37,070 bases of DNA from a virus (lineage: Duplodnaviria > Caudoviricetes): positions 1 through 37,070 of IMG/VR virus record IMGVR_UViG_3300017655_000014; one strand, written 5' to 3'. The first letter of the stretch is position 1. Every line of letters begins with the position of its first letter. Of this stretch, positions 24,394-34,070 are shown piece after piece. The notes under the pieces were generated by a model, which worked only from the letters and a program-made list of their open reading frames with translations, had not been told where the DNA came from and ran no database searches. A program made the translations under genes and the position numbers.

Positions 24394-25557
24394 ATGGCAC
24401 TCACAGTCAAGCAGGTCGAGGGCGCAAAGCCCAAGGATAAGCCCTACAAGCTCGGCGACGCCGGCGGCCTGTACCTGTACGTTGCGCCCAGCGGATTGAA
24501 GTCATGGCGCGCCAATTTCATGCAGGCCGGACGCCAGCGCACCAGGACGTACGGAAGATTGCCGGGCATGACCCTGGCGCAGGCGCGCGCGGCGCACGCC
24601 GCGGCGAAGGCCCAGGCCACCGAACAGCGCGCAGCGCCGGTGGCGCCGGACTTCCACACCGTCGCCCGCCAGTGGCTGGTGGTCAAGCAACCCTCTCTCT
24701 CCAATCACAAGCACCGCGTGCAGCTCGAAAACACGCTGGAGCGCTTCGTCTATCCCGCCATCGGGAAAATCCCAATCGATCAGATCAAGCGCACGCAGCT
24801 GGCCGACGTGGTGATGCAAACTCAGCAGGGCGGCCGGGTGGAGACTGCGCACCGCGTCGCCGGCCGGATTACGGCGGTGTTCGACTATGCCCAGGACATG
24901 GGGATACTGGAAAGCCATGGCGCCTCGGGTCTGGTGCGGGTGCTGCAGCCACGCAAGGTCAGGAAGCCGATGGCATGCATTCCGCCGGAGGAAACCGGCC
25001 AGCTGCTCGCGCTCATCGATGACTACGACGATCCGGTGACCAGGCTGGGCCTGCTATTGCTGGCGCATACCTTTGTGCGGGTCGGGGAGCTGCGCGGGAT
25101 GCGGTGGGATGAATTGCGGGAGGGCGGGGCGGTCTGGGTGATCCCTGCGGAGCGCATGAAGCTGCGGATCCCGCACGTTGTTCCGCTATCGCGCCAGGCG
25201 CAGGCCATCCTGGCGCAGCTGGAATTGTTGACCGGGGAAGGGGAGCTGGTGCTGAGTTCGACGATCAAGCGCGGCCGGCCGCTGTCGGAGAACACATTCC
25301 TGTTCGCACTGTACCGCCTGGGCTACCGCGGGAGAATGACCGCGCACGGCTTCCGGTCCCTGGCGTCGACCGTGCTGAATGAGCTCTCCGGGTTCCCCCA
25401 TGATGTCATCGAGCGGCAGCTGGCGCACAAGGAGACGGACGCCGTCAGGGCCGCGTACAACCGGGCGCAGTACCTGGATCAGCGGCGCGCCCTGATGACG
25501 TGGTGGGGGGATTGGCTTGACCAACAGCGCGCAGATCATCGACACGCCAGCGCGTGA
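24394..25557 (+). CDS. int: P4-type tyrosine integrase
   Basis: Arm-binding domain (KPKDKPYKLGD.GGLYLYV.PSG.KSW), R(VGE), H.VPLS, HGFR, E.QL.H and catalytic Y in AYNRAQY. Confidence 0.95.
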   Translation: MALTVKQVEGAKPKDKPYKLGDAGGLYLYVAPSGLKSWRANFMQAGRQRTRTYGRLPGMTLAQARAAHAAAKAQATEQRAAPVAPDFHTVARQWLVVKQPSLSNHKHRVQLENTLERFVYPAIGKIPIDQIKRTQLADVVMQTQQGGRVETAHRVAGRITAVFDYAQDMGILESHGASGLVRVLQPRKVRKPMACIPPEETGQLLALIDDYDDPVTRLGLLLLAHTFVRVGELRGMRWDELREGGAVWVIPAERMKLRIPHVVPLSRQAQAILAQLELLTGEGELVLSSTIKRGRPLSENTFLFALYRLGYRGRMTAHGFRSLASTVLNELSGFPHDVIERQLAHKETDAVRAAYNRAQYLDQRRALMTWWGDWLDQQRADHRHASA

Positions 25558-31996: not shown

Positions 31997-32038
31997 ATAT
32001 TAAGCGACACGCTTATATTGTGTCAAGCGTATCGCTTA
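31997..32038 (-). promoter_or_regulatory. PL promoter with two repressor operators (OL)
   Basis: Minus strand TTGACA (32026-32021)-N18-TAATAT (32002-31997); operators TAAGCG-ACA-CGCTTA (32001-32015) and CAAGCG-TAT-CGCTTA (32024-32038). Confidence 0.85.
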
Positions 32039-32139: not shown

Positions 32140-32490
32140 TTAAAGCCAGTCGTACTCAAATTCATTGTAAGCAGGAAAATTTACGCCGGAGAAAATTAAA
32201 AACGTGGAAAGAATGATAAGGGCCAAGAGGAAAGTTAACCACCCCAACCAAACGCGATGTGTTTTGGCGTGCGCTTGAAAGCCTAGCCATCCAGATAAGG
32301 AGAATGCCCCGATGTACAACACGTGAGCGAACAAAGAAATCGCAATGGCTGATGAGCACCTTGTTGGGTTATCAGCAAAGCCACATTTCCCCAGTAGGAT
32401 AAGAAGGGGAACCCCAACAAAAATGCCGAGATACCACCAAACTAGATACCAGTCCGTCTTTTGATCGTTATTCATCCCTCTGATCTGCAA
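32140..32490 (-). CDS. Low-GC three-TM membrane protein downstream of the repressor
   Basis: Three hydrophobic segments; start uncertain (TTG 32490 or ATG 32475); followed by tandem terminators. Confidence 0.65.
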   Translation of the reverse strand: MQIRGMNNDQKTDWYLVWWYLGIFVGVPLLILLGKCGFADNPTRCSSAIAISLFAHVLYIGAFSLSGWLGFQAHAKTHRVWLGWLTFLLALIILSTFLIFSGVNFPAYNEFEYDWL

Positions 32491-32541
32491 GTTGTAATTG
32501 CCTTACGGCACGTCTAGTAATTATCAGAAACACCATTTACA

Positions 32542-32557
32542 CTGTTCAAAAATACAG
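32542..32557 (+). promoter_or_regulatory. LexA (SOS) box
   Basis: CTGT-TCAAAAAT-ACAG fits the beta/gamma-proteobacterial CTGT-N8-ACAG consensus; overlaps a -10-like TACACT (32538-32543). Confidence 0.8.
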
Positions 32558-32617
32558 TGCTTTTTGTTCCCCGCTGACACCAGGCCGAACCACAAAAAGC
32601 AACCCAGGGGAGGCGGA

Positions 32618-32821
32618 ATGCACAACAAAAAAATGCCAGCAGAGTTCATTCGGGACTTCAGCGACCTGCAGCAGGAGCAGCGCGATATCGTGATCGCGAC
32701 AGTGCGCAACATGGCAAATAGGGCTCGGAAAAGGCGCCCACAGCTGCACCTAATTGTTGGCGGTTCTAGCCCTAACTTGCCTCCTCACCTCCCGGACGGC
32801 GCGCGCATTGTCAAGAATTGA
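32618..32821 (+). CDS. Putative SOS-inducible antirepressor (67 aa)
   Basis: GGGGAGG RBS, 60 nt downstream of a LexA box, convergent with and overlapping cI; similar to the cI C-terminal helices. Confidence 0.65.
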   Translation: MHNKKMPAEFIRDFSDLQQEQRDIVIATVRNMANRARKRRPQLHLIVGGSSPNLPPHLPDGARIVKN

Positions 32822-33154
32822 TTCTCGCCCCTTGTCGTCTTCCTCAAAAAAAATTGCTATCAGCTCTGCTAAATTATCTTGGCTGATTCCAGCGTCTGGC
32901 CGGCCCACAATCTGAGCATCATCGTGGTCGGTGTCCATCCATCCAACGGGTTTTCTCATGCCCGTTTCAAGTTTTCGTGCGGCCGCAGTTCCGAGGTTCC
33001 GCGGTTTCCCGGTTTTTACGTCAATAGCGCGGCTACGCAACTGGCTTATATACACCGGGGAAAGCCCCGATTTTTCCGCAAGCGATTCGGCCGTACCGGC
33101 TTCGTCGACAAGTATTTCCAGATTTTCCAACCGAATTTGAGAGTTTTGCTTCAT
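32750..33154 (-). CDS. cI: Immunity repressor lacking an S24 autopeptidase domain
   Basis: R.ENL..L....G....LA...G.S..YISQL...RN.G...ARKLE......GWMD HTH; divergent from cro across the operators; 134 aa. Confidence 0.8.
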   Translation of the reverse strand: MKQNSQIRLENLEILVDEAGTAESLAEKSGLSPVYISQLRSRAIDVKTGKPRNLGTAAARKLETGMRKPVGWMDTDHDDAQIVGRPDAGISQDNLAELIAIFFEEDDKGRESILDNARAVREVRRQVRARTANN

Positions 33155-33165
33155 AAAAAGATTTA

Positions 33166-33231
33166 ACAGCATTTCGCTTAAAAAGCACATGAGCGATACG
33201 CTTGACTTTAATTAAGCGATTCGCTTATGCT
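33166..33231 (+). promoter_or_regulatory. OR region: three operators and PR promoter
   Basis: ACAGCA-TTT-CGCTTA (33166-33180), TGAGCG-ATA-CGCTTG (33190-33204), TAAGCG-ATT-CGCTTA (33213-33227); TTGACT (33202)-N18-TATGCT (33226-33231). Confidence 0.85.
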
Positions 33232-33237
33232 GTCAGC

Positions 33238-33468
33238 ATGAAACTAGCTGACTACACATCAATTGAGCGTGGGCGCCAGTCCGGGCTTGCAAAAATCCTG
33301 GGCATTCCGCCCCAGCTCATGTACCAGTGGGCGCGTGGGGTGAGGCCTGTACCGATTGAGCGCTGCGTGGAGATCGAACGCGCCACCGATGGAGCGGTGA
33401 GTCGCCGCGACTTGCGCCCAAACGACTGGCATCTGATCTGGCCCGAGCTCACCGAGGAGCGGGCATGA
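33238..33468 (+). CDS. cro: Cro/YdaS-like regulator
   Basis: QSGLAKILG.....YQW..G.RPVP..RC..IE.AT.G.V.R.DLRP.DW..IWPEL. Confidence 0.88.
   Translation: MKLADYTSIERGRQSGLAKILGIPPQLMYQWARGVRPVPIERCVEIERATDGAVSRRDLRPNDWHLIWPELTEERA
33452..33468 (+). repeat. 17-bp direct repeat, left copy (RBS plus stop/start junction)
   Basis: CCGAGGAGCGGGCATGA versus CCGAGGAGCGGGTATGA at 34054-34070 (16/17 identical). Confidence 0.8.
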
Positions 33469-34070
33469 GCAGACACTCAGTCCATCCAACTCACCGAAGC
33501 CGCCCCAATGGAGCTTCCATCTCGGAATCGATAAGAGTGCTGGCACTCCGGACACTTGGCGAAGCGCTTCTTGTCGCCGTCAAACTGGAGTATCGACTTC
33601 ACACCTCGGTTGTCGCGACAGCCGGGACAAAGGTAATGCTCTGGCTCTCCGTTCCTGGCCGATTCTTCTACCAAAAGGGCATAGGTTCCGGGATAGGGTT
33701 CGACCAATTTATAGCGCTCAAAGTCTCGATTGCGTTTTTCAAGTTTTCTTACCTGTTCTTCAAGATCACGCATGCGAGCCAGATGCGCGCCCTCGCGCTC
33801 GGTGGCCTGCGCAGCCTTCTCCTGCATGGCGAGCACATGGGCGCCGACATGCGCAAGCTGAACCGTCAGTTCATTGGTAGCCGCCGCGATCTTCGCATCA
33901 TCGAGCGTTTGTACTGCCGCCTTGTAGGCGCCGAGACCTTGGGTGAGGGTCGAGATCATATTCAAAACGTCCATGGAAGCCTCCTGTCTGGTGATGAATC
34001 GATTGGTGTAGGAGCCACCGATTCTACCGGCGGGAGCGCTTCCACCAAAATCCCCGAGGAGCGGGTATGA
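33465..34070 (+). CDS. Possible bridging ORF antisense to the moron (201 aa)
   Basis: Has a GAGGAG RBS and ATGA overlaps with both the cro stop and the cII start; no recognisable domain. Confidence 0.35.
   Translation: MSRHSVHPTHRSRPNGASISESIRVLALRTLGEALLVAVKLEYRLHTSVVATAGTKVMLWLSVPGRFFYQKGIGSGIGFDQFIALKVSIAFFKFSYLFFKITHASQMRALALGGLRSLLLHGEHMGADMRKLNRQFIGSRRDLRIIERLYCRLVGAETLGEGRDHIQNVHGSLLSGDESIGVGATDSTGGSASTKIPEERV
33477..33974 (-). CDS. Moron: coiled-coil plus Zn-ribbon protein, antisense between cro and cII
   Basis: AGGAGG RBS; own -10 TAGAAT (34026-34021); coiled coil then HYLCPGC...KSILQ...CPEC. Confidence 0.75.
   Translation of the reverse strand: MDVLNMISTLTQGLGAYKAAVQTLDDAKIAAATNELTVQLAHVGAHVLAMQEKAAQATEREGAHLARMRDLEEQVRKLEKRNRDFERYKLVEPYPGTYALLVEESARNGEPEHYLCPGCRDNRGVKSILQFDGDKKRFAKCPECQHSYRFRDGSSIGAASVSWMD
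34054..34070 (+). repeat. 17-bp direct repeat, right copy
   Basis: CCGAGGAGCGGGTATGA, paired with 33452-33468. Confidence 0.8.

Follow-up and report, generated by a model that had tools for sequence, protein, structure and literature searches.

The closest described counterpart of the locus analyzed here is the AimX–AimC–AimL system, the extended arbitrium of the phi106 family, in which a small ORF is convergent with and overlaps the gene of a short repressor, together with a LexA site and a divergent cro gene. In the part of the preprint that treats this system, it belongs to Gram-positive hosts and to AimR/AimP arbitrium control, binding of AimX to AimC was demonstrated and an antisense effect was excluded, as a stop allele in the Bacillus system abolished the response and recoding of the overlap changed nothing (bioRxiv 10.1101/2025.11.23.689978). 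The mimicry of SinR by SinI and SlrA in B. subtilis, which is discussed in the same part of the preprint, likewise involves small helical proteins lacking a helix–turn–helix (HTH) domain that imitate the oligomerization domain of an XRE-type repressor. A further group comprises 186 Tum, N15 AntC and Gifsy GfoA/GftA, which are LexA-repressed small proteins acting against non-cleavable repressors in proteobacterial phages. The section of PMC3121763 devoted to these enteric phages sets their genes apart from the immunity region, in a module of their own and often with dinI, describes cross-talk between Gifsy prophages and does not describe the antirepressors as homologues of repressor tails. Finally, RNA-level control of an antirepressor message is represented by the C4/CI antisense RNAs and c4-a1b1 targets of P1, P7 and P4, with an anti-ribosome-site element as set out in a portion of PMC5320573.

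In this study, a window of 37,070 bases, which is a whole virus record with direct terminal repeats, was analyzed computationally around a small gene that faces its repressor gene. We consider it probable that this gene is part of a DNA-damage switch, in which a LexA-gated mini-protein pairs with the tail of the repressor and breaks repressor oligomers. Compared with AimX–AimC, the window has a CTGT-N8-ACAG box instead of arbitrium control, and no aimR–aimP pair was found beside the module; the region upstream of the small ORF is occupied by a 116-aa membrane-type ORF, by terminators and by a leftward operon. Two further differences are a detectable profile homology between mini-protein and repressor tail and a conserved structured leader. 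The module is not a member of the extended arbitrium but, by analogy, may well work like one, and the mechanism is less new than an earlier sequence-only reading had held, because AimX–AimC has the same layout and logic. Unlike the Tum, AntC and Gifsy genes as that section describes them, the mini-protein gene adjoins the repressor gene. A search of mainly open literature found no paper on a proteobacterial module or leader of this kind.

The phage and its immunity region

PHROGs matches in the window comprise a podovirus-type structural module, a terminase, an integrase (24394–25557), RecT, an exonuclease, an O-like replication protein and a CII-like regulator, and this gene set, including the integrase, identifies the window as a temperate phage. 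Relatives of the repressor were found in Burkholderia, Bordetella, Ralstonia and Paenalcaligenes records, which makes a betaproteobacterial host likely.

The repressor (134 aa, 32750–33154, minus strand) consists of an HTH-type N-terminal domain and a C-terminal helical hairpin (approximately residues 92–133). Residues 1–92 match the repressor family phrog_12107 (E = 1e-17); in Pfam, there is a weak HTH_3 match only (E = 0.009) and no peptidase S24. The divergent cro-like gene (33220–33468, plus strand) matches YdaS (E = 2.5e-16) and P22_Cro (E = 2e-7), and between cro and cII lies an antisense gene of phrog_1244 (33477–34043, minus strand), whose 188-aa product has a zinc-ribbon-like motif at its C-terminus. 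Operator-like palindromes occur in two pairs: one between the repressor and cro genes (33190–33227), overlapping a rightward promoter-like site (33202–33231), and the other (32001–32038) over a leftward promoter-like site (32026–31997). The sequence TAAGCG-N3-CGCTTA is present at 32001–32015 and 33213–33227, with variants at 32024–32038 and 33190–33204. L010 has similar repeats next to its repressor, the N-terminal domain of which is 77% identical.

The N-terminal domain of the window's repressor (32915–33154) has 77% identical counterparts in L001 and L010, where the domain continues, by eye, into a long S24-like C-terminus; in other phages, it is followed by short tails of two or more kinds. 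Repressor tails, and hence the route of induction, are therefore swapped as modules. No LexA box was found at the corresponding place in the S24-type relatives L001, L006 and L010.

The LexA box and the mini-protein gene

The LexA consensus CTGT-N8-ACAG occurs once in the 37,070 bases, at 32542–32557, within a longer palindrome (32540–32559), and is taken as a putative SOS operator from its sequence match. It is overlapped at its left end by the likely −10 hexamer TACACT (32538–32543, plus strand). The corresponding −35 element is weak (3/6 by reading), and the promoter of the mini-protein gene is not among the sites listed by a promoter scan of the window. The same scan places a leftward promoter-like site (32549–32520) over the same box. 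Behind this site lies the 116-aa hydrophobic membrane-type ORF (32140–32490, minus strand), which has no family match and may be cargo co-induced via the shared box.

Rightwards, the ribosome-binding site GGGGAGG (32606–32612) precedes the ATG at 32618 of a 67-aa ORF (32618–32821, plus strand), the candidate antirepressor, which overlaps the 3' end of the repressor gene by 72 nt. The mini-protein consists of a helical hairpin (residues 8–39), a P-x-L-x-L-V motif (residues 41–47) and a variable tail encoded antisense to the repressor gene. In all of these respects, namely the 134-aa repressor without an S24 domain, the facing LexA box and its −10 hexamer, the strong ribosome-binding site, the overlapping ORF and the operators, the sequence-only reading was correct. 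The locus thereby has the sequence features of the LexA-controlled functional class, i.e. a repressor without S24 and a small conserved gene with a LexA-type operator apparently on its promoter.

Related modules in other phages

A search of 1.84 billion representatives with the mini-protein returned P0010, an independent homologue (71 aa, 51% identical over residues 1–51), and one spurious long protein. A word-indexed database yielded the self-match only, GenBank phages and viral contigs yielded nothing, metagenomes yielded only the mini-protein itself and the ESM Atlas gave only leads below 0.9. No family was matched below E = 0.07 when the mini-proteins of the window and L152 (see below) and P0010 were scanned against PHROGs and Pfam, and it is through these families only that the comparison with Tum, AntC and the Gifsy proteins was made. 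As protein searches were exhausted after P0010, the module was searched for by layout.

The PHROG family of the repressor had 68 matches in 401 bacterial genomes, and 17 of the 50 that were examined were short. Of these 17, which have the same HTH family as the window's repressor, one was accompanied by the module (L152), with a convergent 78-aa ORF preceded by a ribosome site, a LexA box with one mismatch and a 122-nt overlap with the repressor gene. The window and L152 have GTTCCCCGC in common directly 3' of the box, and a pattern of the LexA box plus the GTTCCCCGC motif led to L268. A tight DNA-only pattern (LexA box plus GTTCCCC) was then run over all of IMG/VR and returned 38 loci, 18 of which contain a LexA box, a leader and an ORF of 45–80 aa (starts chosen by eye). 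A convergent repressor gene overlaps the mini-protein ORF in 17 of these 18 loci, the remaining one being incomplete at the locus end; since L374 duplicates L358, 16 distinct complete modules were obtained in addition to L152. The pattern held no protein information, so recovery of the module amounts to a blind test of the layout, and the ORF, the box and the overlap are kept together in many unrelated phage loci.

The 17 module repressors that were scanned (the 16 distinct ones and that of L152) have lengths of 109–154 aa; HTH-type Pfam matches to several families were found in 11 of them, and Pfam S24 matched none of the 17. A divergent cro gene is present in the loci checked (the window, L152, L349 and L353). 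The overlap between the mini-protein and repressor genes ranges from 6 to 122 nt. The LexA box is kept throughout, being fixed by the search pattern, and the −10 position reads TATACT in 9/17 related modules, with one-off variants elsewhere; its last three letters were again set by the pattern. The gene across the box from the mini-protein differs between the loci that were read, whereas the leader, the mini-protein ORF and the short repressor are constant. L356 and L377 have near-identical leaders and similar mini-proteins, and the repressors that these face resemble each other in their tails although their HTH domains are unrelated; this likeness suggests that the box, leader, mini-protein and repressor tail travel as one unit. 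The cargo of L152 upstream of its box (2316–2843) consists of a gene that is PIN-domain-like by eye, together with a partner. Other searches were less productive: a looser DNA pattern (119 loci from 19 of 64 parts scanned) gave one module, and a three-sequence profile (A5) had 37 matches in 401 genomes, with no further module among the 10 loci that were read.

A perfect LexA box also occurs approximately 290 nt past a short repressor in KS9, BgManors32, phiBt-TXDOH and four IMG/VR loci (L026, L042, L051 and L062) from an unbiased LexA-box sample of 120, 80 of which had full flanks. The cargo there is a convergent protein of approximately 95–105 aa, β-rich by eye and without a family match. It corresponds to KS9 gp40, is unannotated in the phiBt-TXDOH record and lies at 2370–2710 in L004 and L005 and at 2390–2705 in L007; the short repressors that it faces belong to three or more HTH types. 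From its sequence context, this Burkholderia-type protein is a candidate second antirepressor family. In Pseudomonas-type prophages (L073 and L134–L139), a 61-aa ORF that is tail-like by eye lies behind a LexA box in tandem after a short repressor; the order in L135 (1447–3197) is short repressor, variable cargo gene, LexA box, 61-aa ORF, second LexA box and umuD-like gene.

Mini-proteins and repressor tails

Twenty mini-proteins (alignment A6) share M...E..LL..F..M...DR followed by P-x-L-x-L-V, and 18 repressor tails (alignment A7) share EL...Y.....GR..IL..A. The sequence-only reading had set out from a gapless likeness between the mini-protein (32639–32713) and the repressor (32869–32795) of the window. 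Both segments translate as given there and the identity of 6/25 is real, but as a pair the likeness is at chance level, with 399 of 2000 shuffles scoring as well and no BLASTP alignment of the two proteins at E ≤ 100; it becomes significant only between families. Profile–profile alignment of A6 and A7 with hhalign gave a probability of 94% (E = 1.3e-7, 34 columns), in exactly the register originally proposed. With the overlap-encoded tail removed, the core score was 36, compared with maxima of 10.5 for shuffled columns and 28 for shuffled seven-column blocks (100 shuffles of each kind) and with 5.7 for the reversed profile.

AlphaFold predicts helix–turn–helix hairpins for both the mini-protein (helices 8–15 and 19–39) and the repressor tail, with the turn in register and a core pLDDT above 90. 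The tail model superposes on the dimerization domain of TP901-1 CI at 1.1 Å over 35 residues, with a Z of 4.6 that is not diagnostic, and a wide structural search with it remained below a Z of 6 throughout. Foldseek with the mini-protein model gave no matches, profile searches of solved structures gave only weak, unrelated helices and the repressor tails matched small PHROG families weakly (E = 0.07–0.38). A prediction of the complex of repressor tail (A7, 5–46) and mini-protein (A6, 1–50) reached 0.09 (mark 0.32) and was counted neither way.

The mini-proteins are homologous to the repressor tails without being copies of their own. Cognate mini–tail pairs score 22.6 compared with 25.2 for non-cognate pairs (p = 0.95), and mini–mini resemblance (35.7) exceeds mini–tail resemblance (25.0), so the mini-proteins are not private duplicates of the tails that they face. 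A weak co-variation of the two families (Mantel ρ = 0.23, p = 0.036) is open to shared ancestry. The earlier description of an HTH-less copy of the repressor's domain therefore stands as regards a homologous family of hairpins in the same register and falls as regards a copy of the phage's own repressor; on sequence evidence, the mini-proteins appear to be an old sister family of the repressor tails. They share with SinI the absence of an HTH domain and homology to the C-terminal hairpin of the repressor. SinI and SinR were not among the sequence or fold matches of the mini-proteins or tails, for which such short hairpins give little power. The SinI–SinR pair serves chromosomal biofilm control under Spo0A and is not a phage SOS switch.

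The hairpin itself is a common module. When the mini-protein profile was run against 401 genomes, the 30 best matches that were examined comprised 24 members of an unrelated family, three regulator tails and three cases of noise, with no modules. The 24 loci (within L382–L408) encode a gammaproteobacterial chromosomal family of approximately 115 aa that begins with the same helical hairpin. The best-conserved part of the mini-proteins is P-x-L-x-L-V, with Leu43 in at least 90% of the 20, and nothing in the repressor tails corresponds to this motif. Behind two short repressors without a module (L009, ~2900–2960, and L011, ~2905–2940), a same-strand, start-less frame reads x-L-R-L-V-W, resembling this tail motif.

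An antirepressor that binds in some other manner, or that acts in trans on the repressors of other prophages as in Gifsy, possibly through the P-x-L-x-L-V tail, would agree with the conservation of this motif, with the lack of preference for the cognate tail and with the Gifsy cross-talk described in that section of PMC3121763. We nevertheless regard it as unlikely, because a fixed tail-to-tail coupling together with homology to the tail family is most simply explained by hairpin exchange, and SinI-type mimics would not need to resemble their target more closely than they resemble its relatives.

The leader RNA

Between the LexA box and the ribosome site lies a structured 5' leader (32557–32602, plus strand), which was absent from the earlier reading and is newly recognized here. 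It has an outer stem (approximately 32560–32567 with 32592–32599), an internal loop (5' UCCCC-NNN / 3' N-G(A/C)ACC) and an inner hairpin. The element [A/C]ACCAC, which was outside the search pattern, follows GTTCCCC at 22–36 nt in 16/17 module leaders compared with 0/20 other pattern hits, which include some duplicates. In the alignment, 83.8% of cells are paired compared with 67.8 ± 2.0 in shuffles and 36–43% in slid controls, and 10 of 12 pairs have changed on both sides, a value reached in 2/500 shuffles and in agreement with a separate count of our own. The structure was derived from the same sequences as those scored and the pairing counts ignore relatedness; the covariation is therefore strong without being a formal test. 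The whole-leader folding energy is not better than that of shuffles (z = −1.0).

The leader may represent a new cis-regulatory RNA. An Rfam search of the window and 19 related loci gave no match; C4/CI RNA identity was rejected, since RF01695 and RF03163 did not match these sequences up to E = 5, whereas a P4 control matched both. A covariance model (R1) gave one weak match in 151 genomes, lying within a coding gene and judged to be chance, and among 100 sources found the window and L342 only, missing L152 and the Burkholderia and Pseudomonas leaders. No separate element complementary to the leader was found above chance within the window.

The UCCCC of the loop may alternatively pair with the ribosome site. 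GGGG is present within 22 nt of the start in 13/19 mini-proteins compared with none of 90 window ATG ORFs (those of at least 100 aa, which are mostly not genes), and the predicted UCCCC–GGGG pairing probability is 0.99 in the window and above 0.5 in 14/19. In the window, burial of the ribosome site gives the more stable fold, by 7.3 kcal/mol, whereas the covarying fold frees 7/10 ribosome-site bases. In 15 other leaders (leaving out L377, a near copy, and L152 and L342, which are without the motif), the gap is 0–20 kcal/mol and the number of freed bases is mixed, from 2 to 10 of 10. Cognate pairing in the anti-SD/SD helix is not significantly better than non-cognate pairing (p = 0.086). Together, these results make a two-state leader, with UCCCC either in the loop or paired with GGGG, plausible from folding models but unproven.

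The conservation of the leader in both primary sequence and structure, the convergent, overlapping transcripts of all complete modules and the counts of G–U versus A–C pairs (14 versus 9, our own count), which do not clearly fix the strand, would also suit a switch at the level of RNA or transcription, in which LexA-released convergent transcription would shut down the repressor gene and the functional part would be the leader rather than the protein, acting as a small RNA, a processing site or an antitermination element. This appears quite unlikely: the ORF keeps its start, ribosome site and protein-level family signature across unrelated loci, overlaps of only 6 nt occur and, in the preprint, the Bacillus analogue lost its response with a stop allele and not with recoding of the overlap. 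For the same reasons, namely the range of overlaps (6–122 nt) and the neutral recoding, the aid from antisense transcription into the repressor gene that had been suggested earlier is unlikely to be a main effect.

Discussion

Most likely, the locus is a switch in which the protein acts on the repressor tail. In a lysogen, host LexA would keep the mini-protein gene off, as suggested by the box and its conservation. LexA is removed upon DNA damage, which is established biology, and the gene would then be transcribed. The leader, whose fold is supported by covariation, would hold its UCCCC either in the internal loop or paired with the GGGG ribosome site and would probably limit leaky translation. 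By analogy with AimX–AimC, which has the same layout and in which binding was demonstrated, and with SinI–SinR, and given the homology, the mini-protein may bind the repressor by standing in for the partner's C-terminal hairpin when the repressor dimerizes. The operators at 33190–33227 and 32001–32038 would thereby be freed, and cro and the early genes expressed.

That the gene is instead an accessory induced by SOS and directed at a host target, or that the box mainly serves the leftward 116-aa gene (32490–32140) at a cargo hot spot, is very unlikely: the leftward promoter-like site over the same box and the presence of the hairpin in unrelated chromosomal proteins are in keeping with this, but in the loci that were read the gene beyond the box varies while the leader, mini-protein ORF and short repressor remain, and no module has an S24 repressor.

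An elaboration of the tail-mimic switch, which we put forward tentatively and as rather doubtful, has two locks: LexA would gate transcription of the tail mimic, and the leader would act as a riboregulator that flips between the folds hiding UCCCC and burying the ribosome site. Because unrelated phages have the same loop sequences, what drives such a flip would be a small molecule or a host factor that is conserved. If this were true, these prophages would combine DNA damage with a second signal.

Many prophage repressors cannot cut themselves, and for a set of proteobacterial-type phages the module offers a compact candidate answer to how induction is triggered. It would extend the mimic logic of AimX and SinI outside Bacillus and to phages without arbitrium, and the slot facing the repressor tail seems to take interchangeable cargo. 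Such unannotated genes are found by a 27-base DNA signature with a precision of approximately 50% (18/38), whereas protein searches do not find them.
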